DNA from: Candidatus Saccharimonadota bacterium | GTDB lineage: Bacteria > Patescibacteriota > Saccharimonadia > CAILAD01 > BJGX01 | DNA: 64,000 nt | Direction: 5' to 3' | NCBI GenBank assembly: GCA_016191105.1 | Contig: JACPPH010000002.1 | Span: 141,931 to 205,930 of the forward strand | Part shown: piece by piece, positions 6,658 through 64,000 of the stretch | Numbering within the stretch: position 1 is the stretch's first letter | Layout: each line of letters begins with the position of its first letter | Notes under the pieces: model-generated | What the model was told of the DNA's origin: nothing | The model's database searches: none | What the model saw: only the letters and a program-made list of their open reading frames with translations | Translations under genes and position numbers: made by a program

Positions 6658-7229
6658 ATGATCTCCATGATAGCGCTTAAGTACTCTTTTTGACCAATGT
6701 CGTGTTTGCCATTTGGGACTACCTTAAGTGTTGATTCTCTAATGACGGAATTTGCACGTTTGGCTACAGTCATCATTTCCGGTTCCCTTACTGATTCCTT
6801 TTCTCCAACAAGCAAAGTGGTTTTAGATTTAATCTTTTTGCCAGCTTCTAATAAAGAAAAGCTCTTAAAATCGGCCGCTCTATGTTTTCCAATGGATTTG
6901 GCCCAGCTGTCGGGAATCGTCTCCATATCTTCTGCAAAGAATGGTGACAAGGAACACAATACCAGTCTGTCTGGGCAGAACTTAGCTGCGCTTATAGTGG
7001 CTATCATCGCCCCAAACGAAAATCCTAGTACCAGGTTGAAGTCTCCACTTTTTGAGTTATATAGTTCGTTGAATTGAACAACATAGTCGCTCATTATTTT
7101 ATATCTCCAGTCAATATTGACCTTAACGGTCTCAAAAGACTGTTGTGCTAGCCTCTTTGAAATTTCATCGACACCCTTTCTTTCAGGTGTTTCGGTATAG
7201 CCTGGGACTATGAAAGCTACTTTTTTCAC
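6654..7229 (-). CDS. alpha/beta hydrolase fold protein (GxSxG)
   Basis: 191 aa with a GFSFG nucleophile elbow. It has ATGA overlaps with both gltX upstream and the S51 gene downstream. Confidence 0.6.
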   Translation of the reverse strand: MKKVAFIVPGYTETPERKGVDEISKRLAQQSFETVKVNIDWRYKIMSDYVVQFNELYNSKSGDFNLVLGFSFGAMIATISAAKFCPDRLVLCSLSPFFAEDMETIPDSWAKSIGKHRAADFKSFSLLEAGKKIKSKTTLLVGEKESVREPEMMTVAKRANSVIRESTLKVVPNGKHDIGQKEYLSAIMEII

Positions 7230-8647
7230 AATAGATTTTTAGCCGTTTCTAACCTTTTCAGTGACTCTTCTTTACCCAGAGTTGCAAAGATATCAAAAAG
7301 ACCTGGAGCCTCGGTGCGGCCGGTTAGGGCTATGCGTAAGGCATAAAATAGATTTCCGGTGTTTATATCACCCGCTTCGGCAAGTTTGCGTAGGGCTTTC
7401 TCGATAACATCGTGATTAAATTCAACATCTTTAAGATCGCTGGCAACAACCTCTAGCCAATTCTCAACATCTTCTGGCTTATCTTTCTTGGTTAGCAGCT
7501 CCTTATCAACTTTTGGCTCAGTAAAAAATATCTCCATAAGATACTCGGCGTCACTTAGCTTCTTTATACGGTCTTTATCGAGCTCTACAACTCGAGTTAG
7601 ATAATCGTTGTGTTTGTACCAACTCGCCGGCAAAAACGGCTCTAAGCGCTTTAAAAGCTCGTCTGTGGGTAACTCGCGTATGTATTCGCCATTCATCCAG
7701 GCCAGGCGATTAATATCAAATACCGCCGGGCTTTTTTGTACTCTATCCAAACTAAAACGTTTCACCAGTTCATCGTGGCTAAATATCTCTTGCTCGGTGC
7801 CGTCGTTCCAGCCTAAAAGTGCCAAAAAGTTCACCAGTGCCTCTGGCAAATAACCCTTTTCCTTATATTCCAAGACATCGACATCGCCATCGCGTTTACT
7901 GAGCTTCTTTTTGCCATCGGGGCCTAAGATTGGTGGCATATGCACAATTGTGGGTCGATCAATCTTTAGTAAGTCGTACAGTGCGGCATACTTTGGCATG
8001 GAGCTAATAAACTCATCACCACGAATAATATGGGTAATTTTCATTAGGTAATCATCAACAATATGGGCAAAGTTATAAGTTGGAAAGCCATCGGCCTTGA
8101 TTAGTATAAAATCATCTATTAGTTCGTTCTTTGTCTCAAACTCGCCCCTTAGCTCATCTTTCCACTTTGTGACTCCGGCTGGGACCTTCAGCCGTACTGG
8201 ATAACCATTCGTTTCCTTTGAGTGCTCTTCAGGCTCCATATTTTGTTTATAGACAAATGGCTTCTTGGTATCGATTGCGGCAGCTTTATGTGACTGAAAC
8301 TCTTCAGGGGTAATGTATGAATAATAAGCATTTCCCTGCTTAATTAACTTTTCGGCAAATTCTTGATAGTTTGGCAACCGCTTCGACTGCACATATGGAG
8401 CATGCTCGCCCGTTTCGGTATACCACACCCCTTCGTCGGGCTTAAGGCCAAGCCAATCAAGGCTTTTAACTATATGTGTGGCACCCCAGTCTACAAACCG
8501 CTCTCGATCAGTGTCTTCGAGGCGTAGAATAAAGCTACCCTTTTGATTTTTGGCAAATAAGTATGCAAACAGTGCTGTGCGAACATTGCCAACATGCAAA
8601 AACCCAGTTGGACTGGGTGCAAAACGAGTTCTAACAGGCTTGCTCAT
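7226..8647 (-). CDS. gltX: Glutamyl-tRNA synthetase
   Basis: 473 aa, N-terminus RFAPSPTGFLHVGNVRTAL (HIGH region), and a KLSKRDG (KMSKS) motif. Confidence 0.9.
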   Translation of the reverse strand: MSKPVRTRFAPSPTGFLHVGNVRTALFAYLFAKNQKGSFILRLEDTDRERFVDWGATHIVKSLDWLGLKPDEGVWYTETGEHAPYVQSKRLPNYQEFAEKLIKQGNAYYSYITPEEFQSHKAAAIDTKKPFVYKQNMEPEEHSKETNGYPVRLKVPAGVTKWKDELRGEFETKNELIDDFILIKADGFPTYNFAHIVDDYLMKITHIIRGDEFISSMPKYAALYDLLKIDRPTIVHMPPILGPDGKKKLSKRDGDVDVLEYKEKGYLPEALVNFLALLGWNDGTEQEIFSHDELVKRFSLDRVQKSPAVFDINRLAWMNGEYIRELPTDELLKRLEPFLPASWYKHNDYLTRVVELDKDRIKKLSDAEYLMEIFFTEPKVDKELLTKKDKPEDVENWLEVVASDLKDVEFNHDVIEKALRKLAEAGDINTGNLFYALRIALTGRTEAPGLFDIFATLGKEESLKRLETAKNLL

Positions 8648-8675: not shown

Positions 8676-9011
8676 TTAGCTCAACAGGTCTTCGGCCTGA
8701 ATCTCGTTCCAGTAGCCGTCGGGTTGCCCGCGGTAGAAAACTACTTTTGTAGATGTTTCTTCTGGGTCGTAAACATACTGAACGCGATTGGCGCTACCAG
8801 TTTGATGATAAAAAGTTTTCTTATCAATAATTACTGGCCCGGCAATTCGCTCAATCTTATACTTAACATTGTCTTTCTCAAACTCAATACTCTCGACAGT
8901 TCGAGTAAGGTCTTTGTTGTCTTCGAGTGGTTCGGTTTTGCGGTTGGAGTTGTCGATTTGATATTTTTCATCTATCAGATCAATTAACTCGTCCCAGGCA
9001 CGATTGGTCAT
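8676..9011 (-). CDS. hypothetical small protein
   Basis: 111-aa ORF that overlaps the upstream Zn-ribbon gene by 4 nt. No recognisable motif. Confidence 0.4.
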   Translation of the reverse strand: MTNRAWDELIDLIDEKYQIDNSNRKTEPLEDNKDLTRTVESIEFEKDNVKYKIERIAGPVIIDKKTFYHQTGSANRVQYVYDPEETSTKVVFYRGQPDGYWNEIQAEDLLS

Positions 9012-10558
9012 AGGCTGGTAGCAATTTTGATTAATTGGTCTTGGTTCAGACCGCTAGTATTGCCCTCTAGTCTATACCAAGTGCCCTTATTAATCCAGCT
9101 GGCTTGGTTGTTGCCATACATGTATATGGTTAACCCCTGAGCCTGCAAAGCCAGGTAGTTGTCAGATTTCTGAGTCACATAGTTTTCAGCTAAGGCTTGA
9201 GAGTCCCAGTCGGTCTTAGCCTCTTGCACCTGCATCTGCTGACTGCCGTTTGAATTGCTAACATTGTAACTAATAAGTCCTGGACTGGCCTGAATGTCGC
9301 CCGATACCTTCCAGCCTGAGGGCAAATAGTTTGGCAAACTGGCGTTAATACCCGCCTTGCCACTGGCGACTTTAAAAGCCAAGTTTGGATAGTTGATTTG
9401 CCATACATACAATCCAACCACCACCACACCAATTAGGCTTAGAGCCACACTGGCCGGCTTAAGACCAGGCTTTTTCTGCCCGGGCTGAGAATTATTTAAT
9501 TGAGCTATGACGGTTGGCACGCTATTGGGTTTAGGTATAAGGTGAGTCGGCAGCCCCATTTCCACTACTCGGCCTGAGCCAGGTGTCTGCCTGGCATTGG
9601 TTAGTTGGCTATTGGCCCTGGTTGTGGGCGGGAGTATGCTTGGTGGCTGAACAGAATTAACGGCTTTAACTACAGGTGCAGTTTCGGCAGTCGACAGGCC
9701 AGGGCTTAAGGCGCTCAGAGTGTTGTGTTTGGGCGGAATGTACTCCACCCCCGGGCTGGCCGCAGGCCGAATATCGCTCATGACTTTGAGGCTGGACTGG
9801 GACGGTTTGGCGCTGCCCTGAGTGGCTTTGGCTAGTTCATTAAGCTGAGCATCAGAAAAAACAGACTCGTTTTTGGTATCCAACCCCCCCAGCTCACTGC
9901 CGACATTCTCACTCGCAGGGGCTGGATTAGGCTTGGCTAAGTCTAGGTTTTTAATTGGCGCCACCCTCGACACAGTGGGTGCAAATTGAGGTTGGGGAGC
10001 CGACTTTGGAGTCTTTTGACCCTCTAAAAGTCGTTGTAGTGAAGACTCGTCGTGAGCATGCTGGACTTTAGATGTGATTTCTGCAGCCGCCTTGGTTTGA
10101 GGCTGACTTCTGCTGTCGGGCTGGGTCGTTGGGACTACAGCGGGCTGCGGCACTGGCTGTGCTTGGCTGATTGCCGGTTGTTCAGCAGGGTTTGAAGACA
10201 GTGGCTTGGGCGCTCCGGCTGGTTGCTGTGAGCTTGATTGTGCGATAGGTTCTGGCTGTATCGGCTTGGTGCTGCTTACTGCATTGGCCGATGCTGGTTC
10301 GGCCGGTTTTGGCGCAATGACTGTAGATGGGGGTGCAGCCAGGGGAGCTAGGGCAGGCGCTGCTTGGGTGTTGGTACCATCAGCCAGTGGTGCTGTGGCA
10401 GCTTTGACCGCCACATCTGCAACCGGTGCGCCGGAGCTTGCTGTTTGGCTGTCTGTAGTTTGGACGGGCGTACCACAGTTAGCACAAAAAGTCTTACCTG
10501 CAATGGTTATTTGATTGTCGGAACTACAATTTGCACATTGATTCATACTAAAACTCAC
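9008..10558 (-). CDS. Zinc-ribbon membrane protein with a long Pro/Ala/Gln-rich linker and C-terminal extracytoplasmic domain
   Basis: N-terminal CANC...CANCG zinc ribbon, about 350 aa of low-complexity PAQS sequence, one TM helix (LSLIGVVVVGLYVW), and a ~130-aa C-terminal domain. Confidence 0.5.
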   Translation of the reverse strand: MSFSMNQCANCSSDNQITIAGKTFCANCGTPVQTTDSQTASSGAPVADVAVKAATAPLADGTNTQAAPALAPLAAPPSTVIAPKPAEPASANAVSSTKPIQPEPIAQSSSQQPAGAPKPLSSNPAEQPAISQAQPVPQPAVVPTTQPDSRSQPQTKAAAEITSKVQHAHDESSLQRLLEGQKTPKSAPQPQFAPTVSRVAPIKNLDLAKPNPAPASENVGSELGGLDTKNESVFSDAQLNELAKATQGSAKPSQSSLKVMSDIRPAASPGVEYIPPKHNTLSALSPGLSTAETAPVVKAVNSVQPPSILPPTTRANSQLTNARQTPGSGRVVEMGLPTHLIPKPNSVPTVIAQLNNSQPGQKKPGLKPASVALSLIGVVVVGLYVWQINYPNLAFKVASGKAGINASLPNYLPSGWKVSGDIQASPGLISYNVSNSNGSQQMQVQEAKTDWDSQALAENYVTQKSDNYLALQAQGLTIYMYGNNQASWINKGTWYRLEGNTSGLNQDQLIKIATSL

Positions 10559-11451: not shown

Positions 11452-12571
11452 GAGTCCCCTCGATGCTATCTACAACTCTGGCAAGTTTTTTTACGAACCG
11501 CTCAGCAGAAAACTTCTTAGCTTGAGCTAGAAGGGTATTTTCACTCCAATTTATCTGCTCTGCCCTAGTGATTGCTTGGTTTAAACTGTCTTCATTGTCT
11601 TGGTCGAAAAAAACACCCGTTTCGTTTGCAACTACGGTCTCATTTGCTCCTCCGCCGCGTCGCGCGATCACCGGTGTCGAGGCCGCCATAGCTTCAACTG
11701 GCGTGAGGCCAAAGTCTTCGATGTTGGCAAAGACCAATCCTTTGGCCTGCTGCAGTAACTCAATCTTTTTGGCCTCGCTAACTCGACCCAAGAACTTTAT
11801 GTTTGGCGAGCTAGCTGCCAACTCTATAAGGCGGTCTTTGTCCGGGCCGTCGCCAGCAATCACTAGCGGCAACTTGTTTTTATTGAAAGTTTTAATTACA
11901 AGTTCAATGTTTTTATATTTAGACAGTACCGATAATATTAAATAGTAGCTGCCTTTTTCTTGACCAGTTGCGGATTTGAATTGCCCAACATTGACCGGTG
12001 GATAAACAACCTCAGCGCCGCGGCGATAAAACTTTCTAATGCGGTCTGCAATATAATTACTGTTTGCTAAAAAATGATCTACCCGATTTGAACCATAGAA
12101 ATCCCAAAGCCTTACTCTAGAAGTTGTTCGGCTAATAATGAATCGTGAGAGCGGCCCCACCTTGAACGGCCTAATTCGCTGGCCATCTAGATATTTTGGC
12201 CAGCTGTCCCACAACATCCGAGCTGGAGTATGACAATAGCAAATATGAACACAGTTTTTGGGTTTTTGAATATTCTTGGCCCAAGCGCTGGAGCTAGACA
12301 CTATTAAATCGTAACCACTAAAGTCAAGATTATCCACAGCCCTCGGGATAAGCGGCAACATAAACTGCGGTCGCTTCTTTAAGGCACCGGGGGCGTACTG
12401 CAAAAAACTAGTTTGGACTTTTCGATCGTTTAGACTCTCGGCAAAGAGCTTTTGATTACATATTAGGCTATAAAGATCAGCTTCTGGATACATTTTAGCA
12501 AGCTCAAAAAAAACTCGCTCAGCGCCACCAGACTTAACATTCAGCCAGTCATGAACCAGGGCTATCTTCAC
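11444..12571 (-). CDS. Glycosyltransferase family 4 (GT-B, EX7E)
   Basis: 375 aa, C-terminal GLTPVEAMAASTPVIA motif. It overlaps the neighbouring genes on both sides. Confidence 0.8.
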   Translation of the reverse strand: MKIALVHDWLNVKSGGAERVFFELAKMYPEADLYSLICNQKLFAESLNDRKVQTSFLQYAPGALKKRPQFMLPLIPRAVDNLDFSGYDLIVSSSSAWAKNIQKPKNCVHICYCHTPARMLWDSWPKYLDGQRIRPFKVGPLSRFIISRTTSRVRLWDFYGSNRVDHFLANSNYIADRIRKFYRRGAEVVYPPVNVGQFKSATGQEKGSYYLILSVLSKYKNIELVIKTFNKNKLPLVIAGDGPDKDRLIELAASSPNIKFLGRVSEAKKIELLQQAKGLVFANIEDFGLTPVEAMAASTPVIARRGGGANETVVANETGVFFDQDNEDSLNQAITRAEQINWSENTLLAQAKKFSAERFVKKLARVVDSIEGTHE

Positions 12572-33484: not shown

Positions 33485-33815
33485 AAGCTATAAGCTCCTT
33501 TCATAGAAGTATTAGTTAATTAAATAGCGTTCTCGTTCGGTTGTGTATATGCAATGTAAAAGGACTTTTGTATCTATTGAGCAGTAATGGTACTATATTA
33601 TACGCTTTAAGTCAATAGATAATTGTTATGTTTTTGCAGGGTTTTTCGAAAGGCCCTGAGATCAAGTTTTTTATGAAAGCCTGATCTCAAAGACTTATAG
33701 TTTCGGGTGGGTGTCGTCCCGGAGACCGAAGTCTCCAGGACGAGCGACACCCAAGAGTGGACTCTGTGTGCCATCGCACCGCGAATTGAGTCCGCTAATT
33801 CGCGGTGTTTAAGCC

Positions 33816-35306
33816 CTAGGCGGGCTTGGGCGACGGACCGGGCGGGGCCGTCGTGGGTGGCACCGGCGCCGAGCTGGGCGGCGTTGCCCTGGTGGTGGGC
33901 GGGCTTCCCCCCGGGCACAGCTGCGGACAACCGGTGCTCGGGTTCGGCACTCCTGGATTGATGTCCGGGTTGGGCGGCCTGGGGGTCACCCCACCGCAGC
34001 CACTTGGACCACAGCCTTTCACCGGCGCCGGCACAGCCGGATTGCTGATAGGCTGCTGCTCGGCGATCTTGCCCTGAGGCTTGGTCGTCGGCGTCGTCAC
34101 CGTCGGCGGTGGGATGGTCGGCCCTCCCGTCGGCGGGGGCGTCACCGTCGGCGGTGGGATTGTTGACTCCGGTGGCAGGTTTGGCGGAACCGGCACCTGC
34201 GGCACGTTCGGCGTGGGCTTGAGCGACCCCCTGTTCCCGCACGAGGCGAAGAACATGATGTATGCGTTGTCCTTCCAGAACTTCACGTACAGCCGGGGCG
34301 TGCTGGTGACGTAGTCGAACTGCACCACGGTACCGTTTTGCACGACTGTGTTGTACAGGCGGGTACCCGCTGGCAACACTCCACGTTCCACCATGGAACC
34401 TCGAACGAAGTCCAGCACGATGAACAGATCCCAACCGGCCTTGGCGGCATCGCCGACCGGGCGGGGGTCCTCGTAGGGCTTGTCTTGGCTGGCCATGATG
34501 GTCCGCGCCGCATCGTCCAAGAATGCCGGGCTGCCAACACCCTTCAGGAGCAAGTCGGAGAACATGTCCTCCGGCGTGTTTCCTTGGATGCCGTTGAGCA
34601 CAACACACTTGGTCTCACACGTCACGCCCACTCCCTGTACGAGGCCACGGCGCTGGGCAATCTTCTGAACGAAGATGGCAAGGTCGACGGTGTCGGGCTG
34701 ATGCGGTGGCGCCGTGCTTGGCGGTGTGGTAGCCATAGTTGTTGGCGCAGCTGTGCCTTGCGGTTGTGTCCCGCTCGGTACTGCCGTGGTGGTGGAAGGA
34801 GCCGTGGTGTCGCTGGGCGATGTGCTTGGCGTTGAACCACCCCCGTTGCTGGTGGTGGTAGTGACGCCGGCCAGGATTGCGACGCACTTGGTGTCTGGCG
34901 GGTCCACTCCGAGTTGCTTGAGCTTGTCGGAGCTTTCCTGCACCACCTTGGCGTCGTCGCTGCCAACTCCCTGGCACAACTCGACTGTCAGCTTGAGACA
35001 TTCGGTCGGCGTGATGCCGGCCTCTTGCAGCTTCTTGTCGTCGTCGGAGTTGTTGGTGACTCCGATCCGCTTCTGGCAGTCCTCCAGACTCACCTTGGCC
35101 TTGCGCTCTTCGGTGGTTGCGGGCGGAACAGACGCGGTCGGCGCTGGCACCTGGGTGGTGTCGGAGCCTTGAGGCCCAGGTGATTGCTGGGTTGGTTGGG
35201 CACTCGCAGTGCCGCTTTTGGCTGCAATACCGGCTACACCCACCGCCCCCAAAAGGACAGTGAACACAACCGCGCAAGCAGCGAAGATCGCATGACCCCT
35301 GGTCAT
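33816..35306 (-). CDS. GC-rich block 1: secreted/membrane-anchored Thr/Pro-rich protein with Cys-containing repeat modules
   Basis: Real start is the ATG at 35306 (MTRGHAIFAACAVVFTVLLG...) preceded by AAGGAGGTG; the track's longer ORF adds upstream shadow sequence. It has a signal/TM, T/P-rich linkers, three C-x(25-30)-C modules, and a ~130-aa C-terminal domain of unknown family. GC about 68% with GC3 codons. Confidence 0.5.
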   Translation of the reverse strand: MTRGHAIFAACAVVFTVLLGAVGVAGIAAKSGTASAQPTQQSPGPQGSDTTQVPAPTASVPPATTEERKAKVSLEDCQKRIGVTNNSDDDKKLQEAGITPTECLKLTVELCQGVGSDDAKVVQESSDKLKQLGVDPPDTKCVAILAGVTTTTSNGGGSTPSTSPSDTTAPSTTTAVPSGTQPQGTAAPTTMATTPPSTAPPHQPDTVDLAIFVQKIAQRRGLVQGVGVTCETKCVVLNGIQGNTPEDMFSDLLLKGVGSPAFLDDAARTIMASQDKPYEDPRPVGDAAKAGWDLFIVLDFVRGSMVERGVLPAGTRLYNTVVQNGTVVQFDYVTSTPRLYVKFWKDNAYIMFFASCGNRGSLKPTPNVPQVPVPPNLPPESTIPPPTVTPPPTGGPTIPPPTVTTPTTKPQGKIAEQQPISNPAVPAPVKGCGPSGCGGVTPRPPNPDINPGVPNPSTGCPQLCPGGSPPTTRATPPSSAPVPPTTAPPGPSPKPA

Positions 35307-35529
35307 CCGATCACCTCCTTGTTGTTGTCTGGGTGATGTAAAGCTGCGAACTGGGTGCAGGTTTTCTCTCCTGTACTCAGCCCACATATCAGATTACACT
35401 CTTTTCGTCTATACACAAGTATAAATCTCACATTTGGGTTGAGCGGGTGGCGCCCGGCGGGAACTCGATCCGAAGATCGAAGCTCCCTGCCGGGACCACG
35501 AGGTAGGGGCCAGAACGTCATCCTGACCG

Positions 35530-36006
35530 CTACTTTGTGCCGTGCTTGAACAGCGCCGTGCAGCCGATGATGCCACCGATCACAAACGGGGCAAGAAATG
35601 CCACGATCCGTGGCCCGCCTGCGTCCGTGAGCATGGCAGCCACGACTGCACTGCAGATTGCTGCGAACACCGTTGCAAAGCAGCCCATGAGCACGCCCAC
35701 AAGGATGTGGAGGCTCTTGCCATTGGCTGGGTCTGCGCCGCCGCCAGCGGGTGGCGGCGGTGTGGCGGCATTGGCCGATGGATCGCGTGTGAGGAACCAG
35801 AAGGTCCCCCCTGCGCCACCCAGGCCAACCACCAGGGCGGTGAGGAATCCATACAGCCACGACCAATTGAGTCCTGCGACTACAAGGGTCACGAGCAGCA
35901 GGACTCCGCCAATCACCCCGCTGATGATCAGCTGGGTTTGCTGGTCGAGCCCACCTCCGGGCGATGGGGCCGGCGCGGCATAGCGCGCACGGTTGAAACC
36001 AGGCAT
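35530..36006 (-). CDS. GC-rich block 1: small 4-TM membrane protein
   Basis: About 158 aa from the ATG at 36006 (ribosome-binding site AAGAAGGTGGG). Four hydrophobic helices and a Pro/Gly/Ala-rich loop. Followed by a nested hairpin at 35459-35500. Confidence 0.45.
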   Translation of the reverse strand: MPGFNRARYAAPAPSPGGGLDQQTQLIISGVIGGVLLLVTLVVAGLNWSWLYGFLTALVVGLGGAGGTFWFLTRDPSANAATPPPPAGGGADPANGKSLHILVGVLMGCFATVFAAICSAVVAAMLTDAGGPRIVAFLAPFVIGGIIGCTALFKHGTK

Positions 36007-36029
36007 AATGCCCACCTTCTTTCGTATAT

Positions 36030-36107
36030 GTTCGGGAGCGGTACCTGGTCGTGAACTTCATTGTTCATGTGCCCTCACGGGGGCAATATACCAGGATAGC
36101 GATCCTG
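36030..36107 (-). repeat. Copy 1 of a conserved ~76-bp upstream element (promoter/5'UTR) before the 4-TM gene
   Basis: About 90% identical to 36471-36545. Shares an invariant 25-mer GGCAATATACCAGGATAGCGATCCT and an embedded 7-bp-stem hairpin. It is positioned about -15 to -90 relative to the start codon. Confidence 0.6.
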
Positions 36108-36179
36108 AAATTGTGGGTCACGAGCGGCCGCGCTCCGGGGTAAACCGGAGCACAGCCTCTCGCGTGGCGAGATCACGTG

Positions 36180-36454
36180 AGCACTTGGTCGATGATCTCG
36201 AGCATTGCGGCCTTGAACGCCTTGTTGGCATCTTCGTCCACAACGTCCGGGAAGGACTTCAAGAAGTCGGGGCCACAGAGGTCGATCATGGCCTGCACGC
36301 CTTCCTTGTTGAACTTGACCGTGCCGCCGCCGCTGATCTCCAGTTGCTCGAGAGCAACCTTCTGCAGCAGCTCCAGGGCGCGGGCCTTCATGGCCGGGTC
36401 GGCGTCGGCTGTTGCCGACTTGGACTTCTCGTAGCGGTCTTTGCTGAACGCCAT
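36180..36454 (-). CDS. GC-rich block 1: 91-aa all-helical protein of unknown function
   Basis: ATG at 36454 preceded by CAGGAGAA: MAFSKDRYEKSKSATADADPAMKARALELLQKV...LEIIDQVLT*. No WXG or other known motif. Confidence 0.45.
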
Positions 36455-36470
36455 GATGATTCTCCTGCAT

Positions 36471-36545
36471 GTTCGTGAGCGGTACCTGGTCGCGAACCGA
36501 AGTTCACGTGCCCTCACAGGGGCAATATACCAGGATAGCGATCCT
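36471..36545 (-). repeat. Copy 2 of the conserved ~76-bp upstream element before the 91-aa gene
   Basis: Aligns to 36030-36107 with a 2-nt indel in the hairpin loop. The stem shows a compensatory change (A-C mismatch in copy 1, G-C in copy 2). The loop is TTCG in the transcribed orientation. Confidence 0.6.
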
Positions 36546-36570
36546 AACATTCTGTTGAGTTGGCCGGGGA

Positions 36571-36599
36571 GCTCCGCTGCACACAGTGTGCAGCGGAGC
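36571..36599 (-). terminator. GC-rich hairpin terminator after the J-domain-like gene
   Basis: GCTCCGCTGCACA-CAG-TGTGCAGCGGAGC has a perfect 13-bp stem. A second 7-bp hairpin TTTACCG-CTC-CGGTAAA follows. Confidence 0.5.
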
Positions 36600-36626
36600 C
36601 AACCCCGTTTACCGCTCCCGGTAAAT

Positions 36627-37874
36627 CTAGTCGTCGGCGAAGACCTCCTCGATGATGTCGAAGAACGCGGCGTAGAACACGTCGCGATCGGACTCGAAGT
36701 CACCGTTGGGATACTTCTCGAGGTAGAGGTTGAGGGCGCAGAACGCCACATCGGTGATCCCTTCCTCACTGAACGACCATGGCTTGCGAAGCGGGTCGCG
36801 CGCCCACATGCCGACGGGTGTGCGCTCGATGCACTGCTTGGCTGTCGCCACACGCGCGTCGAAGTTCGGTGGCCGAACATTGGAGCGTTGCTGTCCCGAA
36901 GGACCGCCGCGCGAACCAGCACCCGAACCACTGCTACCACCCGGTCGACTCGACGAGCCGCCACTGGCGCCAGCACCCGACCCGGACTTGGGCCGTGCGC
37001 CTCTGCCAGAGGAGCCACCTTGCGAGCCGCGTGGTCGTTGCCCATTGCCGCCGTTGCGAACGAAGATCCCCTCGAGATTCTCTCGAGTGATGTCGTCGTT
37101 CCGGTCCGGATGGGCAAACGCCAAGACGCTTCGCCAGCAGAACTTGGCCCACTTCTTGCGGTCGCCGTAGGTGAACTTCTCGCCCTTCGGGTCCACCTTG
37201 CGAGCCTCGGCCTCGAAGATCACCATGATCTGGGTCATCCAACCCCGGTACTGGCGATACAAGTCCTGCTCTTCTGGTGTACGACGCGCGAAGGCGGTGA
37301 AGCGCGCCAGGTTGTCGTCGTCTCGTGGTGGCGCGCCGAACTCGGCATGCAAACCCTGGACACCCGAGAAGTTCTCGCGGATGCCAGAGATCGCGGTGTT
37401 CAGCTCTGTGATCTCTCGATCGTTCATGTCGTCTCCCTCCTGGGGGTCTTTGGTTCCCCCCGGAGGGGATGTAGGTTCTGGTTCTTCTGCAAGATCGAGC
37501 ATGAGCGTGACGATGCCACGCTTAACCATCTCGAAGCTGGCGTTGGCTTTGCGTGTCGCGTTGAGGTTGACCCCAACAATCCGACGCACGAGCCGCCACG
37601 GCTCGGGGTCTTGCTCGGTCGCTTGTACGGGTATGCCTTGTGCTTCGAGCCATGGCACCCAGTCTTCGTAGGAAAGGGTTGGCTCGGGGTCTTCGCCTTC
37701 TGGTGGTGTGTCACCTGCCCCTGAATCTTCAAGGACTTTACCAAGTGCCACCAAGAAGTCTTCTTCACCCACCTGTCCGTCATCGGCAAGCTTGTCGCCC
37801 AGTTCAACAATGAGCTTGGGCTTAAGGTCGATCGAAACTTCCAGGTCAGCACATAGCGTTTCGAGATGCGGCAT
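36627..37874 (-). CDS. GC-rich block 1: J-domain-like (HPD motif) protein with acidic N-terminus and Gly/Ser/Arg-rich linker
   Basis: 415 aa; ATG at 37874 with a GGAGGGAAG ribosome-binding site. The segment KKWAKFCWRSVLAFAHPDRNDDITRENLEGIF matches the J-domain helix II-HPD-helix III. It is followed by an NGGNGQRPRGSQGGSSGRG... linker and a C-terminal domain of unknown family. Confidence 0.5.
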   Translation of the reverse strand: MPHLETLCADLEVSIDLKPKLIVELGDKLADDGQVGEEDFLVALGKVLEDSGAGDTPPEGEDPEPTLSYEDWVPWLEAQGIPVQATEQDPEPWRLVRRIVGVNLNATRKANASFEMVKRGIVTLMLDLAEEPEPTSPPGGTKDPQEGDDMNDREITELNTAISGIRENFSGVQGLHAEFGAPPRDDDNLARFTAFARRTPEEQDLYRQYRGWMTQIMVIFEAEARKVDPKGEKFTYGDRKKWAKFCWRSVLAFAHPDRNDDITRENLEGIFVRNGGNGQRPRGSQGGSSGRGARPKSGSGAGASGGSSSRPGGSSGSGAGSRGGPSGQQRSNVRPPNFDARVATAKQCIERTPVGMWARDPLRKPWSFSEEGITDVAFCALNLYLEKYPNGDFESDRDVFYAAFFDIIEEVFADD

Positions 37875-37912
37875 TGCTTCCCTCCTCGGGTAGTGCCCCG
37901 GGAGGGGCGTCT

Positions 37913-38009
37913 TGTTTACTGTTACCTACAGGAGCCTGCGTACGGCATTCAATCTTGGGCGGCAAGATCGCTTACACGTACACAGGTGCCTGTAGGCAGT
38001 TTGTAAACT
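37913..38009. repeat. ~95-bp imperfect palindrome with reiterated CCTACAGG/CCTGTAGG/GTAGGCAG motifs at the block 1 boundary
   Basis: Left arm TGTTTACTGTTACCTACAGGAGCCTGCGTACGG and right arm CGTACACAGGTGCCTGTAGGCAGTTTGTAAACT, centred on AATCTTGGGCGGCAAGATCG. The motif recurs at 38055-38062. The GC content drops to backbone level right after it. Confidence 0.55.
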
Positions 38010-54345: not shown

Positions 54346-54567
54346 GCGCATCCACCCCCAAGTTTCAGTGCGCATAATTCAAAAATATCCAAATTGTTTT
54401 TCTGCCAACGTTGGATCATGTAATTATAGTGTAACAAGCTACAAGGGCTGGTACTAGATAAAATCAGGTTTAAATTGCGTAGAAATGAAGAAGGGGCCCG
54501 AAGACCAGTGGTCGCGATGATCTCGCGAACCCCTTCTTCAGACCCCTGTGGGGACTGTCCCGTGCTA

Positions 54568-55374
54568 CTAGTCCGACCAGACTTCCGGTGCGCTGTGCCG
54601 GGTTTGCCGGGCGCCATGCCAGTCGGTCTCGAGCAGAACCCGATTGCTGGCCAAGTTCCACTCCAGACGAGGAACCCCCACCCATGTGCCGTCTGGCAGG
54701 CAGAGCTCATAGCCAGCCATCTCGACGTAGGGCAGACGCTTGCCATCCTGCTGCTGAAGCAGCTTGGGGTGGTAGGCGTAGGCCGCCAAGACCTCAGCGT
54801 GGGCCAAGTTCCTGGACTTCTTCTCGGATCGCTGACAGATGTTGCCAACCATCCGACCTTTCGAGGGCTCCCAGTTCGCCAACAGATCGATGTGGACCAG
54901 GTGGATGCCCCGCTCGTAGTTGCACGCAGAGGAGTTGAGACGGAGATGATCCGCATCGGCGCACATACGTTCGGCACGAGTGTTGTCATGATCAACGCGG
55001 ATCACTCGCCACCACGTCTCGAAGGTGGCATCGGGCGAGCCGAGGTCGACATAGAGCAGCAACAGGTCGTCGATCTGTTGCGCATGCTCCAGATCGTCCT
55101 CACTGAAGACACGCTCGAAGTCCTCGTCGCTGAGGGCGTAGTTCCAATACCCGGCGTTGTATTCACGCAGGAGCGCCATCTGCTCATGGATTGTCAACAG
55201 CTGAGCGTTGTAGCGGTCATACAGGCCCTCAACCGAGAACTTGCCGTCCACCAGAGCTTGCAGCCCCGCGATTGCCTCGTCAGCTGGACGCTTGCCACTC
55301 TTGACGAATTCGAAGAGGCGGTTGTACACCACCCCCAGGTCGCCGAGCTCCTGTCGTGTAGCTCTCTTGGCCAT
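54568..55374 (-). CDS. GC-rich block 2: 268-aa protein of unknown function
   Basis: ATG at 55374 after AAAGGAGG. About 65% GC with GC3 codons. Helical N-terminus and an alpha/beta C-terminal domain with a conserved His (GIHLVHIDLLANWEP). A nested hairpin GAAGAAGGGG...CCCCTTCTTC (54487-54539) lies downstream. Confidence 0.5.
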   Translation of the reverse strand: MAKRATRQELGDLGVVYNRLFEFVKSGKRPADEAIAGLQALVDGKFSVEGLYDRYNAQLLTIHEQMALLREYNAGYWNYALSDEDFERVFSEDDLEHAQQIDDLLLLYVDLGSPDATFETWWRVIRVDHDNTRAERMCADADHLRLNSSACNYERGIHLVHIDLLANWEPSKGRMVGNICQRSEKKSRNLAHAEVLAAYAYHPKLLQQQDGKRLPYVEMAGYELCLPDGTWVGVPRLEWNLASNRVLLETDWHGARQTRHSAPEVWSD

Positions 55375-55503
55375 CTTAATGGCCTCCTTTGCCGGTGTTC
55401 ATCCACGCTTACACTGTGTCGTGCATCGTGGTCTCAAGCCTCAGCTTGAGAGCGGCGCTTTATAGTTAAAAACGTTAACCACCATGCTTCTGTCAAGGTC
55501 TTG

Positions 55504-56379
55504 TTATCTGATCCAACCGGCAAGCAAAGCAAAAGCCAGCAAGTTGTTGAGCATGTGCAAAAATATGCCAGGAACAATGCTTTTGAGCCGCATATACATT
55601 AAACTCAAGAACATACCCAGCAAGAAAGTATAAATAATTACATTGGGCTGAAAGTGCAAAACAGCAAACAATATGCTGCTACCAGCCGCCCCAATTAACC
55701 AACCCCAGCGGCGCACCAAGGTTGGCAAAATCACCCCCCGAAAGTATATCTCCTCGACTATAGGCACGATTACTACGGTCGAGGTAAAACTAAATGCTAG
55801 TCCTGCCCCTGACTTGCCAAATTCAAAGCCCACAGCCTGAGGTGCATCGGCATTAAAGCTTGGCCAAAGCACTTTTATAGCCACATAGCTGATTGCCACT
55901 AAAACGACTGTTAATATGTAGAACAATACAACATATCCGGCCGAGTTCAGTGGCTTAAACTTACGCAAGCCAAAGTCAACTAGCTTAAGCCCGTATTTTT
56001 GCTTTAACATGAGCAAAACCAGGAATTCGATGGCTACGGTAATCAGCGTGAGGCTCACCCCAGACCAATACGGGTCGGTAACAAAAAAACTACTTAAAAA
56101 GCCTGGGAGCAAGCGGCTTTTAGCCAAAATAATAAGCATAATATAAAAACCAACCGGCAAGGCAACTATCATTGCCAGCGCCTTGGCGGCATCGCGCAGC
56201 CGCCAAGCTACGCCGGCAATCGCAAGATCTTTGCGCAAGGGATCCATGGCTTTATTATAGCCGAATGCACCTAGATGTTTTAGCGGCATTACAGCAAACA
56301 GGAAGCCAAAGAGGTTGGTGTGCTCCATGTTCGAGGACTGTTTGAGCATAAGTGAGTTCCGTAGAGCTGGAAGCAACAA
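55504..56379 (-). CDS. CPBP (CAAX) family intramembrane metalloprotease
   Basis: 291 aa, polytopic, with EEIYFRG and LHF...N motifs. Confidence 0.7.
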   Translation of the reverse strand: MLLPALRNSLMLKQSSNMEHTNLFGFLFAVMPLKHLGAFGYNKAMDPLRKDLAIAGVAWRLRDAAKALAMIVALPVGFYIMLIILAKSRLLPGFLSSFFVTDPYWSGVSLTLITVAIEFLVLLMLKQKYGLKLVDFGLRKFKPLNSAGYVVLFYILTVVLVAISYVAIKVLWPSFNADAPQAVGFEFGKSGAGLAFSFTSTVVIVPIVEEIYFRGVILPTLVRRWGWLIGAAGSSILFAVLHFQPNVIIYTFLLGMFLSLMYMRLKSIVPGIFLHMLNNLLAFALLAGWIR

Positions 56380-59633: not shown

Positions 59634-60481
59634 TACTTCTCCTCCTTTGTAGCAACTTTGGCGGCCTCCATATCTGCATCTTTGGCGGCTTTGGCCCTGT
59701 AGGCCTCGTGGCCAACTCGGGCAGCCTCGGCAATTTTTGTAGTAATTAGTGTAACGGCCTTAATGGCGTCATCGTTAGCTGGAATGGGGTGCTCCACTCG
59801 GTCAGGATCAGCGTTGGTGTCGCAAATAGCAACCACCGGTATGCCTAGCTTGTGAGCCTCGGCAATGGCAATGTCCTCACGCGGCATATCAACTACAAAC
59901 AGTGCCGCTGGCACGGTGTCCATGTCGACCACGCCACCAAAGATCTTTTCAAGATTTTCGAGCTCTTTTAGATTCTTAGAGCGGTCTTTTTTGCTCATGT
60001 CGGCAAAGTCGTTTTCGACTTGTTGAGAGCGCAACTTCTTCATGCGCAACACGCGCTTGCGGATAGTTTCTAGATTGGTTAGCATGCCACCCAGCCAGCG
60101 CTGATTTACATAGGGCATCTCGGCACCCGCGGCCGCTTTAGCCAAGACATCTTTGGCCTGGCGTTTGGTGCCAACAAATAAAACGTTGCCGCCACGTTTA
60201 GTGACGTCTTCGATGAACTTTTCGGCACTCTTTAGAGCCTCGGCAGTTTTGGTGAGATCCAAAATGTGCACCCCGCCTCGAGCAGTGTAAATAAATTCAC
60301 CCATTTTGGGGTTCCAGCGAGCCGTTTGGTGACCAAAATGAGCCCCGGCCTCGAGTAGCTCGCGCAAGATTGGGTCAATCTTTGTCGTTGTTTTTTTGGT
60401 GGCTGGCTTTGCAGCAGCAGTTTTGACTGTAGACGTTTTGGGCGCAGCTTTTTTAGTAGCTGCAGTTGTTTTTTCGCTCAT
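59633..60481 (-). CDS. rpsB: 30S ribosomal protein S2
   Basis: 282 aa; an Ala/Lys-rich N-terminal extension followed by a conserved uS2 core. Confidence 0.9.
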   Translation of the reverse strand: MSEKTTAATKKAAPKTSTVKTAAAKPATKKTTTKIDPILRELLEAGAHFGHQTARWNPKMGEFIYTARGGVHILDLTKTAEALKSAEKFIEDVTKRGGNVLFVGTKRQAKDVLAKAAAGAEMPYVNQRWLGGMLTNLETIRKRVLRMKKLRSQQVENDFADMSKKDRSKNLKELENLEKIFGGVVDMDTVPAALFVVDMPREDIAIAEAHKLGIPVVAICDTNADPDRVEHPIPANDDAIKAVTLITTKIAEAARVGHEAYRAKAAKDADMEAAKVATKEEK

Positions 60482-60680
60482 ATTTCTCCTTGATAGCCTC
60501 GCTGCAGTATCCCAGTTGGGAGGAGCTTGCTGCAGGTGCGTGATTTAATACATTTAAGTGCAATAATTGTAACAGATAGGCTTAAGATGGTCAAAAGCTT
60601 CATAAAATGACGAAAGCCCCCGGCGAGGGAGTCAGAGACTCTCGTCGAGGGCTGTTGGTGTTCTTCGAGCTCGAGTGGGC

Positions 60681-61163
60681 TCAGGCCGGCACGAGGAGTT
60701 CGAATTCCTGAGTGACCGGGTTAAACCGGCGGAGGTTCTCGAGCTTTGGAACCTCGGGGAGGAGCTCGAGCGTGCCGGGCGGAAGACGAATGTTGTCCGC
60801 CGAGATCAGCACGAAGTCCATGAAGATCATCTTGTAGTCACCCAAGGGGCGCACAAGCTCTTCGAGACGCTTCGAGTGACCATCTCCCTCATCGAACAGG
60901 TTGAGGAAGGCATAGGCCCGAGACTGGCGCTGCGAAAGCAGAGGGGATCCTTCTCGCCGAACGCGACCAAGCTCCTTGGTGAAGGCGCCATAGTCATCGA
61001 TCCCCAGCGGGATAACGAAGCCCATTTGGCCCGAGTTCTCAGGGTTCCTCTCAGGATCAAACCCCAACCCGAACACGAACACCGCGCCGAAGGTCACGGC
61101 AACGAACCTCGCCACTGCGTACCCTTCATGCTCGCCTTGGCGGCGAAATTGCTGTGGCTCCAT
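60681..61163 (-). CDS. GC-rich block 3a: 160-aa protein of unknown function
   Basis: ATG at 61163 after GAAAGGGG. About 65% GC. A hairpin with a T-tract (60622-60660) lies downstream. No motif recognised. Confidence 0.45.
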   Translation of the reverse strand: MEPQQFRRQGEHEGYAVARFVAVTFGAVFVFGLGFDPERNPENSGQMGFVIPLGIDDYGAFTKELGRVRREGSPLLSQRQSRAYAFLNLFDEGDGHSKRLEELVRPLGDYKMIFMDFVLISADNIRLPPGTLELLPEVPKLENLRRFNPVTQEFELLVPA

Positions 61164-61206
61164 TGGGGAACCCCTTTCTGTCGAAGATCAGAAACACAGT
61201 ATACCA

Positions 61207-61497
61207 CTAACGGTGTTGCTTGTCAATGGTACTTAATGCCTCCCAGATTACATCAAATTTGGCCTGGAGATCGGCTCGATACCAATCAGGGCGCTTAGAG
61301 GCCCAACAGAACTGGTCGACCGCTACAATCCAGCACATCTGGAGCTGTGTTTGGGACAGTACTTTACACGCAGTCTGTGCAAAAACCTCCCACAGAGGCT
61401 CTAATTCACCCAAAGGGCAGGTTTTACGCAGCACCGACTTCAGTTCTCGCTTTCCAGGAAGCTTAACCTGGTCCATATCAAAACTGCTCACTTTCAC
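61207..61497 (-). CDS. Small Trp/Cys-rich hypothetical protein (mid-GC segment between blocks 3a and 3b)
   Basis: 96-aa ORF with a GTG/ATG start. A TATAAT sits at about 61520. GC is about 50%, unlike the flanking GC-rich blocks. Weak support. Confidence 0.3.
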   Translation of the reverse strand: MKVSSFDMDQVKLPGKRELKSVLRKTCPLGELEPLWEVFAQTACKVLSQTQLQMCWIVAVDQFCWASKRPDWYRADLQAKFDVIWEALSTIDKQHR

Positions 61498-61548
61498 TCC
61501 GCCGGGAATGAGTGTGACAGTAAGATTATACTCCTAAAATGGCAAATG

Positions 61549-61564
61549 CCCCCAGAACTGGGGG
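61549..61564 (-). terminator. Rho-independent terminator after the block 3b gene
   Basis: CCCCCAG-AA-CTGGGGG with a 7-bp GC stem, followed on the transcribed strand by CATTTGCCATTTT. Confidence 0.55.
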
Positions 61565-61593
61565 CGTCTGCCTCCATCCTGAGGGCTTGCGTA

Positions 61594-62295
61594 CTAGTCG
61601 AGCCTTGTCATGATGCCCGTCGGATCCAGCCGCTCGAGCGCAGCAGTTACCGCCACAGCCTTTGCCACCATTTCGCCGCCTCGGGCAACGCGGCTTTGGC
61701 CGGTACTGCCAACGGCCTTAGTAACCGAATTGACCAGGCAGAAGCCTGGGTGGCTAGAGCCCAGGTTGGGGTTCTTGTCACGTTCAGCGTCTTCATAGAT
61801 CAACTCCAGGAGCCGGTCGTCAGAGACCACCTCGAAGTTTATCTTGGTCACTATCTCGGTAACTGCAGTCCTGTTGTGGTCGAAGCCCGCCTGATTGTCC
61901 ACGTCGGTCGTGTACTCAAACTCCAACATCAACAGATTGCCCGACTGCAGCATCCAGAAGCTTCGGTATTTCTTGGCCTCACGAAAGTGATGCTCAACAA
62001 GCAAGATCGCCCTCGTCGAAAGCATCTCGCTCTGCAGGAAGCTGTCGTCGTAGACCCGCTGGGCGACGTTTCGGAATTGGTATGAACCAGCGCCCGGACG
62101 TTCCCAAAGGTGCTTCTTGATTGCCTCTGGCTTCATGGTGACATACTCCATGTGTGGCCCGAGGTCGTGCAGCCACAGCAGCACGAAGTCGTGCCACTCC
62201 TCTGGAGTGACTTCGGCGGGCGGGATGTATTCACCGCCGCGCATTACGGCTCGGCGAACCGCGGCCTTCACTTCTGGCCTGTTGGACGAATCCAT
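61594..62295 (-). CDS. GC-rich block 3b: 233-aa protein of unknown function
   Basis: The likely start is the ATG at 62295 (MDSSNRPEV...) preceded by AAAGGAGCC; the track's longer ORF begins in upstream shadow sequence. About 62% GC. No motif recognised. Confidence 0.45.
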   Translation of the reverse strand: MDSSNRPEVKAAVRRAVMRGGEYIPPAEVTPEEWHDFVLLWLHDLGPHMEYVTMKPEAIKKHLWERPGAGSYQFRNVAQRVYDDSFLQSEMLSTRAILLVEHHFREAKKYRSFWMLQSGNLLMLEFEYTTDVDNQAGFDHNRTAVTEIVTKINFEVVSDDRLLELIYEDAERDKNPNLGSSHPGFCLVNSVTKAVGSTGQSRVARGGEMVAKAVAVTAALERLDPTGIMTRLD

Positions 62296-62413
62296 TGCCA
62301 GGCTCCTTTGCTGTACCTTGGGGCGTACCCCTACCAGTATCGTTGCGTCGTCGCAGGTTTGCGACAATCAAGCTAATTGAACCATTAGCGGAGTTCATAT
62401 GCAAACGTAACAG

Positions 62414-64000
62414 CTATCCAGCTAAATCGTACTTCTTGAGCTCAGCCTTGCGCTTGTCTTTGGCGCCAATGGTTTGCAAGGTTAGCAGTTCGGCGTAAAT
62501 GCCTTTTTGCTTGGCCAACTGATCGGGTGTGCCCATTTGCGACACCTTACCGCCTTTGAGACCCACAATCATATCGACATGCTCAATGGTGCTCAGACGG
62601 TGGGCAATAATCATGGTGGTACGGTCTTTCATAAGCCGCTCCAGCGCCTCCTGCACCTCATGCTCGGCTTTGCTATCAAGACTACTGGTGGCCTCATCGA
62701 GTATCAAAATTGATGGGTCTTTCATAATCGCTCGAGCAATGGCAATGCGTTGCTTTTGGCCGCCACTCAGCTTAACGCCGCGCTCTCCAATTTCGGTATC
62801 AAAGCCCTTGGGCAGCTTCTTGATAAAACCATAAGCATTGGCCGCCTTGGCAGCCTCAATCATATCTTTTTCGGCTGGGTCGTCTTGGCCATAGGCAACG
62901 TTCTCACGCACGGTGCCGCTGAATAGTTGGGGCTCCTGGAAGACCACGCCAATATTTCGGCGCAGGCTCTTTTGAGTGACCTCGTTCACATCTTGGCCAT
63001 CAATTAATATTTGCCCACCAGTAGTCTCGTAAAAGCGCAGCATTAGATTGGCAATAGTGCTCTTGCCCTCGCCGCTTTCGCCCACCAGGGCAATCTTTTG
63101 ACCCGGCTTAATGGTAAAGCTAATGCCGGTTAAAACTCGCTGACCTTTTTCGTAAGCAAAGTCGACCTTGCGATATTCAACTTGCGACTTAGTAATCTTG
63201 AGCTCTTTGGCGCCTGCTTCGTCGGTAATTGCCGCTTTGGTGTTCATAATTTCGAAGTAGTCACGGCTATCGGCTGTAGCTCGCTGCAGAGCATCAACAA
63301 TAAAGCTAGAGCCAAACAACGGAAACTCCGCCTGGTTAACTAAAGTAATTAACAGCACCACCGTGCCCAGGCCATAGCGGCCGGTAAAAGCCTGCCAGAT
63401 TATAACCACGTATATACCCACAAACACCAGATTTAGAATGAGTCGGCGGGCCACATCGTAGCGGTGCCATTTATTGGACTGGTTGCGGGTGAGGCTCTCA
63501 ATGTTGCGTCGCTTTTTGCTAAAGAAGTTTAGCTCGCTAATTTCGGTTACAAACGACTTAATAACTCTAATCTGGCTAATTGACTCCACAAAGCGGCCAT
63601 TGCTAACATCGCGCTCAGTGTTAATTTTGCCTTGCACCTTTTGCCAAGAGGTCGAGCTGAGGTGGGTTATCCAAATGTAGGCTGGAAATATAACCGCTAG
63701 TAGCACCGCCACCGGCCAGCTAAACCAGGCAATAACGGCCAGGGTGATAGCAGTCGTTAAAAAGAACTGTATAAAGTTATTGCTAAGAGTTTGCATTAAT
63801 GTGCTTATGCCGGTAATTGAGCGCTCCAGGCGAGCTGTGATCTTACCAGTAATTTCGTTGTCGTAAAAACCAATTGGTAGTTTGAGCAGGTGATCAAAAT
63901 ACCGCTCCGAGAGTAGGTTGTTGAGCCTAGCAGCCATATTGTCGCCCAAGTAGCCGTTAACGTTGCTAAGTAGAGTAATTACAACATTTACAACCAACAG
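62414..64000 (-). CDS. ABC transporter, fused permease/ATP-binding (MsbA-like), N-terminus beyond window end
   Basis: Six-TM exporter domain followed by Walker A GESGEGKST, signature LSGGQKQR, and Walker B ILILDEATS. The N-terminus runs off the window. Confidence 0.85.
   Translation of the reverse strand: MLVVNVVITLLSNVNGYLGDNMAARLNNLLSERYFDHLLKLPIGFYDNEITGKITARLERSITGISTLMQTLSNNFIQFFLTTAITLAVIAWFSWPVAVLLAVIFPAYIWITHLSSTSWQKVQGKINTERDVSNGRFVESISQIRVIKSFVTEISELNFFSKKRRNIESLTRNQSNKWHRYDVARRLILNLVFVGIYVVIIWQAFTGRYGLGTVVLLITLVNQAEFPLFGSSFIVDALQRATADSRDYFEIMNTKAAITDEAGAKELKITKSQVEYRKVDFAYEKGQRVLTGISFTIKPGQKIALVGESGEGKSTIANLMLRFYETTGGQILIDGQDVNEVTQKSLRRNIGVVFQEPQLFSGTVRENVAYGQDDPAEKDMIEAAKAANAYGFIKKLPKGFDTEIGERGVKLSGGQKQRIAIARAIMKDPSILILDEATSSLDSKAEHEVQEALERLMKDRTTMIIAHRLSTIEHVDMIVGLKGGKVSQMGTPDQLAKQKGIYAELLTLQTIGAKDKRKAELKKYDLAG

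Follow-up and report, generated by a model that had tools for sequence, protein, structure and literature searches.

The window analysed here, a 64,000-nt stretch of a 214-kb contig from a Candidatus Saccharibacteria metagenome-assembled genome (MAG), carries between the genes of a CPBP protease and MreB a GC-rich block of about 1 kb with a single gene, HYX70_01230, whose relationship to the variable (target) proteins of diversity-generating retroelements (DGRs) is the subject of this work. The block, its open reading frame (ORF) and the part of the ORF corresponding to the variable region (VR) of DGR targets are as follows (positions are those of the window):

54480–55497, minus strand: inserted segment, lying between the CPBP stop codon and the native mreB promoter region, with its GC-rich core at 54480–55465; delimited by the composition profile, a 40-nt scan, the empty site of the relative L020 and the extent of family homology
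54568–55374, minus strand: intact ORF of 268 aa, HYX70_01230, taken from the ORF list and matching protein P0001 at 100%
54575–54699, minus strand: VR-homologous segment, residues L226–W266, placed by alignments A1 and A4 and by the pairs of VR and template repeat (TR) in homologous loci

The GC-rich insertion between CPBP and mreB

The core of the block has 59.4% GC and its ORF 60.2%, with a GC content at third codon positions (GC3) of 0.77, against a background of 47.1% (standard deviation 3.0) in 986-nt windows over the rest of the sequence, none of which was as GC-rich as the block. The 40-nt scan showed that GC drops to 33–40% within approximately 40 nt of both ends. The first-pass annotation of this DNA had described a compositional island of about 65% GC at 54480–55465, with one minus-strand ORF encoding 268 aa; the island is genuine (z = 4.1) and its borders are sharp, and the ORF is full length and the only long one in the block, but 64% GC is reached only in local 200-nt windows.

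The CPBP stop codon is located at 55504–55506 and mreB starts at 54375 or 54345, which leaves a spacer of ~1.13 kb in the window. In the syntenic relative L020 (JGI Ga0163144_10007747), where the gene order is rpsB-tsf-...-frr-uppS-rseP-CPBP-[86 nt]-mreB-mreC-mreD-PBP2-greA-lysS, the site is empty and the CPBP–mreB spacer is only 86 nt; thus the insertion in the window is lineage-specific. The window and L020 have the mreB promoter motif GCTTGTTACACTA in common, which lies on the far side of the insertion. Family homology within the inserted segment stops at a terminator-like hairpin on one side and within the leader of the gene on the other. Since the atypical composition was found in a MAG, it could be supposed that a chimeric join, made during assembly or binning, had put foreign reads into the contig. 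However, the Logan contig SRR12113392_20150 (54,647 nt), assembled independently from the same run, matches window positions 1786–56432 with 100% identity and covers both junctions of the block as well as a further GC-rich block at 33.5–38 kb, the flanking genes are neighbours in relatives too, and the gene family is native to Saccharibacteria. An artefact of this kind is thus so improbable that it can practically be dismissed, as had been claimed, and we concluded that the block is a real, lineage-specific, single-gene insertion of ~1 kb between CPBP and mreB.

As had also been stated, no mobility gene accompanies the block: tblastn searches of the 64-kb window with the serine recombinase and the ParB of the family as queries gave no match. 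Flanking direct repeats were not found around the block and the nearest tRNA genes are 1.6 and 19.5 kb away. Consequently, two marks of a genomic island, atypical GC content and absence from a syntenic relative, were observed here, while a mobility gene, a tRNA target and flanking repeats were not. The sequences of the closest CPBP relatives (L019, L031 and L032) stop at most ~100 nt past the CPBP stop codon and thus say nothing for or against a shared insertion. The slot 3′ of CPBP differs among relatives: L022 has another gene at this place, encoding 167 aa (6807–7310), and in L031 a TTGACA-N17-TAGTAT promoter follows directly after the CPBP stop codon (1622–1728). The CPBP–mreB junction may be a recurrent insertion site.

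The variable-protein family and its DGR cassettes

The product had been described as having no recognisable family. This holds for the curated libraries, as the window protein and 105 relatives had no match in Pfam, PHROGs, NCBIfam or PADLOC, nor the protein in a sequence-profile search of the PDB, but not beyond them: homologs collected by an exhaustive profile search formed 373 clusters at E ≤ 1e-3 (206 at E ≤ 1e-10), and these constitute a DGR variable-protein family. A word-indexed search returned just three clusters, with 40–54% identity. Pfam domains were absent in all of 105 family members. The family profile, run against the six-frame translation of the window, had its sole match at 54571–55398 on the minus strand (E = 3.4e-88), phmmer related the window protein to P0002–P0004 with E-values of 3e-83 to 1e-41, and all near-invariant residues of the family (Q65, G211, P215, G221 and P263) are kept in it, as are the P, W, VP, W, V, L, W and AP residues that form the VR scaffold. 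By homology, the window gene is a member of this Saccharibacteria family of DGR variable proteins. All eight loci that come from GTDB species genomes belong to Saccharibacteria or Saccharimonadia, and no relatives were found in viral contigs, in a phage collection or in a plasmid collection. The metagenome scans were run with a four-sequence alignment.

The AlphaFold2 model built with a 105-sequence alignment reached a predicted local distance difference test (pLDDT) score of 95.3 and a predicted template-modelling score (pTM) of 0.86, while the one built with four sequences was unusable (pLDDT 32). The model predicts an N-terminal helical region at approximately residues 7–95 and an alpha/beta domain at residues 103–268, in which the VR would form the last strands; the protein sequence reveals neither a signal peptide nor a membrane helix. 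Foldseek searches of the pLDDT-95 model against the PDB and BFVD gave no significant match, only weak C-type-lectin look-alikes with TM scores of 0.35–0.43 and probabilities of at most 0.13, and hhalign detected no signal against the DGR target Mtd (probability 0.2%). It is conceivable, though rather unlikely, that the scaffold bearing the VR is not recognisable as a C-type lectin fold.

In most loci with enough flanking sequence the 3′-end of the target gene is repeated. Its last 122–128 nt recur 0.3–2 kb downstream in L003, L004, L005, L010, L011, L012, L013 and L030, and in the eight TR/VR pairs formed in this way mismatches were detected at 117 of the 234 TR-adenine sites and at 18 of the 767 other sites (Fisher p = 5e-66), 15 of the latter 18 stemming from one decayed pair (L013). 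Beside the TR, a bAvd gene (PF22296) lies on the opposite strand, followed by an RVT_1 gene of 310–360 aa; bAvd or a homolog is present in L003, L004, L005, L010, L011, L012 and L030, and a DGR-type reverse transcriptase (RT) in L004, L005, L010, L011, L012 and L030. The RVT_1 products of the homologous loci carry the motifs IPLGN(L/V)TSQ and YCDD, and [LIV]GxxxSQ is the signature of DGR reverse transcriptases. The adenine mismatches between TR and VR, bAvd and the LGxxxSQ-type RT thus make up a DGR signature, and the homologous loci are canonical DGR cassettes of the order target(VR)-TR-avd-RT. With eight independent loci, it is unlikely that the linkage of TR, VR and RT is an assembly artefact.

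The family cassettes are active in nature. Differences between samples of one and the same element concentrate in the VR: both of the two differences between L005 and L009, which are otherwise identical, fall inside it, and 15 of the 29 differences between L013 and L014 lie inside the 132-nt VR. The RTs of the family had 7,974 matches at E ≤ 1e-30, which places them in a very large Patescibacteria clade, with 54–71% identity to thousands of Patescibacteria RTs. The co-divergence of RT and target is weak and not significant (rho 0.27), and does not settle whether targets were swapped between cassettes. The family shows a continuum, from full cassettes (L004, L005, L010, L011, L012 and L030) through a decaying one (L001-3), whose RT is cut to ~118 aa and whose target is frameshifted, to the orphan copies L015, L016, L026 and that of the window. 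Orphan L016 was identical throughout between samples, hence it is uninformative on the stasis of its VR.

Several further observations were made on individual cassettes. Large serine recombinases adjoin several of them (L005 7392–9643, L001 8425–9726 and L011 2401–3663) and L005 is also next to ParB and a second recombinase, suggesting that integrative elements carry these DGRs. Between the target and the TR of L005 lies a ClpP-like protease gene. L023 and L005, two assemblies of one element, have RTs that are 100% identical, and the "template repeat" of L023 (5917–6045, compared with 11916–12044 of L005) equals its own VR even at positions that are adenine in the TR of L005; either the assembly collapsed the VR onto the TR, or the TR was converted by the VR. 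L011 has two TR-like copies after one target (11814–11945 and 12344–12475), one with 31 adenines, which is probably the TR, and another with 20 adenines and only two differences at A-sites, which is possibly the VR of a second target.

The composition of the block, taken as foreign by the first-pass annotation, proved to be intrinsic to the gene family in every genome. The family gene has 58–67% GC in every locus, while the flanks have 40–58%, except for L024, a 3.5-kb contig with 65%. In the six complete cassettes the GC3 of the target is 0.74–0.87 compared with 0.43–0.52 for the RT and 0.36–0.57 for Avd of the same cassette. A and T are depleted equally in the gene, whose non-VR part has 59–60% GC and whose VR has 65–68%. 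A recent common high-GC source does not explain this pattern because the members share just 35–55% protein identity, and we concluded that the high GC content is a property of the gene family, not the signal of a high-GC donor. For a gene-specific force that would hold the Saccharibacteria DGR variable-protein genes at a GC3 of ~0.8, independently of the genome and of their own RT, the chances seem about even. The strong GC enrichment of target gene and TR relative to their own RT, Avd and host genome is an unexplained rule, which matters for inferring horizontal transfer from GC deviation in candidate phyla radiation (CPR) genomes and may bear on the DGR mechanism. L024 (CAAGKR010093486.1, 957–1655), the sole member whose flanks are as GC-rich as the gene, adjoins a nicotinate-phosphoribosyltransferase-like ORF, appears to be truncated at its N-terminus and has no TR in the 3.5-kb contig; it could mark a high-GC host lineage.

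These data bear on the idea that the gene is ORFan cargo acquired from a high-GC donor, for example an actinobacterial host, and is one of three single-gene imports in the window. The block lies 12 points above the background GC with sharp borders, the gene is absent from the syntenic L020 and one family member does reside on a contig with 65% GC flanks, all of which speak for an import. Nevertheless, every labelled member of the family is from Saccharibacteria, the 58–67% GC gene is found in genomes of 40–58% GC and in cassettes with host-like RT and Avd, the low identity among the members means that GC is not a signature of recent transfer, phage or plasmid relatives are lacking, and the remaining two GC-rich loci differ in kind. 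We consider the import from a high-GC donor largely refuted and very improbable.

The claim that the same pattern recurs at three loci was likewise not borne out, as the other two GC-rich loci are unrelated sequence kinds. At 9.0–10.6 kb (9008–10558, minus strand) the GC-rich sequence is the Pro/Ala/Gln-rich low-complexity linker of a 516-aa host protein, not an insertion; in this protein a zinc-ribbon-like CxxC pair at the N-terminus is accompanied by a membrane helix and, at the C-terminus, a DUF4367 domain. The region at 33.5–38 kb (33500–38000) is a multi-ORF island of ~61% GC and GC3 of 0.69–0.74 with several minus-strand ORFs, for example 33816–35387, 35530–36015 and 36627–37874 (HYX70_01155), and its ORFs showed no Pfam match and no similarity to the variable-protein family. 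It includes a direct repeat of ~90 nt (36028–36115 and 36469–36554, 91–93% identical), which was rejected as a TR/VR pair, the mismatches not being adenine-specific. A milder rise of GC (53–56%) extends over ORFs without obvious family at 60000–63000, between an ABC transporter gene and rpsB, among them 61594–62295 (minus strand, 233 aa) with no Pfam match on record.

The window copy without its cassette

In the search for the missing half of the cassette, sequences were regarded as TR-compatible if they agreed with the VR at all positions other than their own adenines. The sequence readable around the gene was ~66 kb in total, as ~2 kb past the window, to ~65,959, could be reached via the Logan contig _183621. 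No adenine-tolerant TR match to 54568–54717 was detected on either strand of the window and this extension, nor with half-length probes, and the best score of the scan was 100/150 compared with 137–138/150 for the positive controls. General repeat finding in the window revealed no TR for the gene, and a TR-compatible copy was also absent from both strands of L035. The tblastn searches of the 64-kb window with family queries gave no match to RT or Avd, there is no RT among the called genes out to ~65,959, and the family profile detected no second member of the family in the six-frame translation of the window. Of the parts of a complete DGR, neither an RT nor a TR/VR pair nor Avd was thus found at the window locus. 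No HYX70-tagged RT occurred among the 120 matches listed of the 7,974 RT matches, which is uninformative for the same MAG.

The noncoding elements accompanying the ORF are partly kept, partly altered and partly lost. Those recognised in the window are the following:

55383–55390, minus strand: ribosome-binding site AAAGGAGG, 8 nt before the ATG, at a position conserved in the family leader alignment
55391–55458, minus strand: conserved 5′ leader, defined by DNA alignments A2 and A5
55485–55496, minus strand: TTGACAGAAGCA, a degraded 5′ arm of leader hairpin P1 or a native −35-like hexamer
54551–54561, minus strand: hairpin H1, GGGAC-A-GTCCC, 7 nt after the stop codon, recognised from the post-stop sequences of 12 loci
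54492–54547, minus strand: nested GC-rich terminator-like hairpin, with a minimum free energy of −41.7 kcal/mol and z = −4.3 compared with shuffled sequences

Upstream of the gene, a family promoter of the form TTGACA-N17-TAGTATAAT and a GTATTTTGACAAT box stand in nearly all other loci, the orphans L015 and L016 among them. Both are missing from the window, where the 3′-end of CPBP occupies their place, and the consensus scan called no minus-strand promoter for the ORF. The gene had been said to possess its own signals, which is right as regards the ribosome-binding site and the hairpin but not the promoter. The leader of the family forms a hairpin, P1, with 21 pairs, six of them with compensatory changes (RNAalifold, 12 loci). 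The window leader retains the 3′ arm of P1 (GCGCCGCTCTCAA, 55446–55458), TTGAGACC and a second hairpin, CCACG...CGTGG. In the 5′ arm of P1, at least five pairs are broken in the window only, and most of the broken pairs in the alignment come from the window row. The homology of TTGACAGAAGCA is ambiguous, as L031, the closest relative, likewise has a TTGACA after its CPBP stop codon. The leader hairpin of ~21 bp (TTGAGAGCGGC...GCCGCTCTCAA) was located at 9820–10000 in L005, at 9595–9800 in L016 and in nine other loci, and corresponds to 55391–55496 in the window; TTGAGA, following it, could pair alternatively with the 3′ arm of the hairpin. The leader hairpin may act in cis as an uncharacterised regulatory element of DGR target genes. 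In Rfam, the leader and the terminator region had no matches but chance ones below threshold.

Downstream of the VR, the stem of H1 covaries in the family (GGCAC, GAGGC, GGAC, GGAAC, GAGAC or GGGTC, with TTCG or TTG loops), and the window copy kept the stem with a loop reduced to 1 nt. The family has a second hairpin adjacent to H1, H2, of ~43–57 nt (GGAGGGCCTTGG...CCTTGGCCCTCC), backed by compensatory changes, which is wholly deleted in the window. In the window, the conserved VR end ...GGGAGTCGTAG is replaced by ...GGTCGGACTAG, with substitutions and a 3-nt insertion. The hairpin that closes the block is homologous to the one ending the gene module in other loci, for example L005. The first-pass annotation had placed a nested hairpin terminator at 54487–54539; a strong hairpin is indeed present close to this place, but its tail, AUUUCU, is a weak U-tract, and it went uncalled in the terminator scan. 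Of the elements of the module, the window therefore has the ribosome-binding site, the leader's 3′ half, the stem of H1 and the terminal hairpin.

The borders of the module invite the explanation that the gene is a retrocopy, that is, a 5′-truncated cDNA of a variable-protein mRNA, inserted ectopically by the DGR RT. Family homology starts ~25–60 nt past the predicted start of transcription and stops precisely at the terminal hairpin, neither the promoter nor the first leader box is present, and the family is associated with an RT. On the other hand, neither a target-site duplication nor an A-tail is present, and H2, which would be expected in a transcript, is missing. Moreover, the orphans L015 and L016 keep the promoter, which indicates that dispersal at the DNA level or deletion of TR-avd-RT already occurs in the family, and the borders of the module fall on functional ones, for which recombination and decay account just as well. 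Retrocopying is thus a highly unlikely origin of the gene, although, if true, it would mean that DGR enzymes occasionally mobilise whole target transcripts, beyond the template repeat.

Considering these results, we find it probable that the window gene is an orphaned DGR target gene, retired from diversification, with its specificity frozen and its expression dependent on read-through. In the relatives, the RT, helped by Avd, copies the RNA of the nearby TR and randomises its adenines, and the cDNA overwrites the VR at the 3′-end of the gene, giving rise to a diversified, putatively ligand-binding surface at the C-terminus of the protein. The window copy would have been parted from the TR-avd-RT half, with its promoter gone, its leader hairpin degraded and its post-VR hairpins damaged. 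Transcription might then reach the gene by read-through from the same-strand upstream genes uppS-rseP-CPBP; the 129-nt gap between CPBP and the ORF contains no terminator-like element. The product would be a putative cytoplasmic binding protein of fixed specificity, which is no longer hypermutated.

Several points weigh against this interpretation. The ~66 kb readable is part of a 214-kb contig in a multi-contig MAG, and a DGR may be situated elsewhere; the ORF, the VR scaffold and the H1 stem are intact, and the VR could still be a target in trans; all cis elements are kept in several orphan copies, and orphans are maybe maintained as remote targets. These points lead to the alternative that the gene serves as an active remote target and undergoes hypermutation in trans by a DGR lying >54 kb away on one side, >11 kb on the other, or on another contig. 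Non-adjacent targets are known from 45 of 372 DGRs (PMC5758913), and the intact ORF and VR scaffold, the retained H1 stem and the promoter and hairpins kept by the orphans L015 and L016 would all agree with such a role. However, every DGR-linked locus of the family has its TR 0.3–1.5 kb downstream of the target, the window copy has lost H2, has an altered H1 loop and a changed conserved 3′-end of the VR, and two assemblies pass cleanly and identically through the VR. We therefore regard continued diversification in trans as rather unlikely, though it deserves serious consideration.

If the gene is an orphaned and frozen target, an anonymous "foreign" gene becomes interpretable as a hypervariable-protein gene without its mutator, and such orphans would be natural experiments on fixing a DGR-diversified specificity in an episymbiotic, genome-reduced bacterium. 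The analysis also defines an uncurated Saccharibacteria variable-protein family, with a fold that is predicted with confidence and has no solved match, a covarying leader hairpin and two post-VR hairpins.

Comparison with known systems

Like small islets and ORFan insertions, the block has an atypical composition and sharp borders and is absent from a syntenic relative; unlike acquired islets, it has no integrase, tRNA or flanking repeat, and its composition is a trait of the gene family.

The closer parallels are with DGR targets such as Mtd of Bordetella phage BPP-1, TvpA of Treponema denticola, AvpA and TaqVP. As in those systems, the homologs of the window gene have a C-terminal VR of ~125 nt on an aromatic and proline scaffold, a downstream TR that differs essentially at adenines, Avd, a DGR-type RT and conserved inverted repeats after the VR. 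In contrast to Mtd, TvpA, AvpA and TaqVP, there is no sequence match to Mtd or any PDB chain, and the window has no TR, RT or Avd nearby. In the layout reportedly described by Guo et al. in 2011 an IMH-type (initiation of mutagenic homing) 3′-end of the VR is followed within 4–34 bp by a GC-rich hairpin/cruciform. H1 and the family H2 are the elements of the Saccharibacteria module to be compared with it. In the BPP-1 DGR, efficient homing needs the region just 3′ of the VR, including a GC-rich hairpin with a sequence-dependent loop (PMC3240598).

The window gene also resembles the remote DGR targets of the Treponema and Legionella type, in which a target-type gene lies far from any RT (Wu et al., 2018; PMC5758913). 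Such remote targets were recognised in surveys by their match to a TR, from which they differ by A-to-N changes only (PMC5758913). Unlike them, the window gene has no cognate TR in the readable sequence and its cis elements are partly decayed.

The DGRs of CPR/Patescibacteria, reportedly treated by Paul et al. in 2017, are similar in host phylum, in their compact chromosomal cassettes, in having one adjacent target and in targets without recognisable domains; they differ in that the window holds a target alone and that this target family is in neither Pfam nor NCBIfam. CPR DGRs usually have one adjacent target, and targets >100 kb away were reported in a non-CPR lineage only, and most targets in the "CPR set" of Wu et al. 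have no recognisable domain (PMC5758913). Roux et al. (2021) described a CPR-restricted DGR clade, DGR clade 2 (PMC8144416), and the RTs of the family are consistent with this clade.

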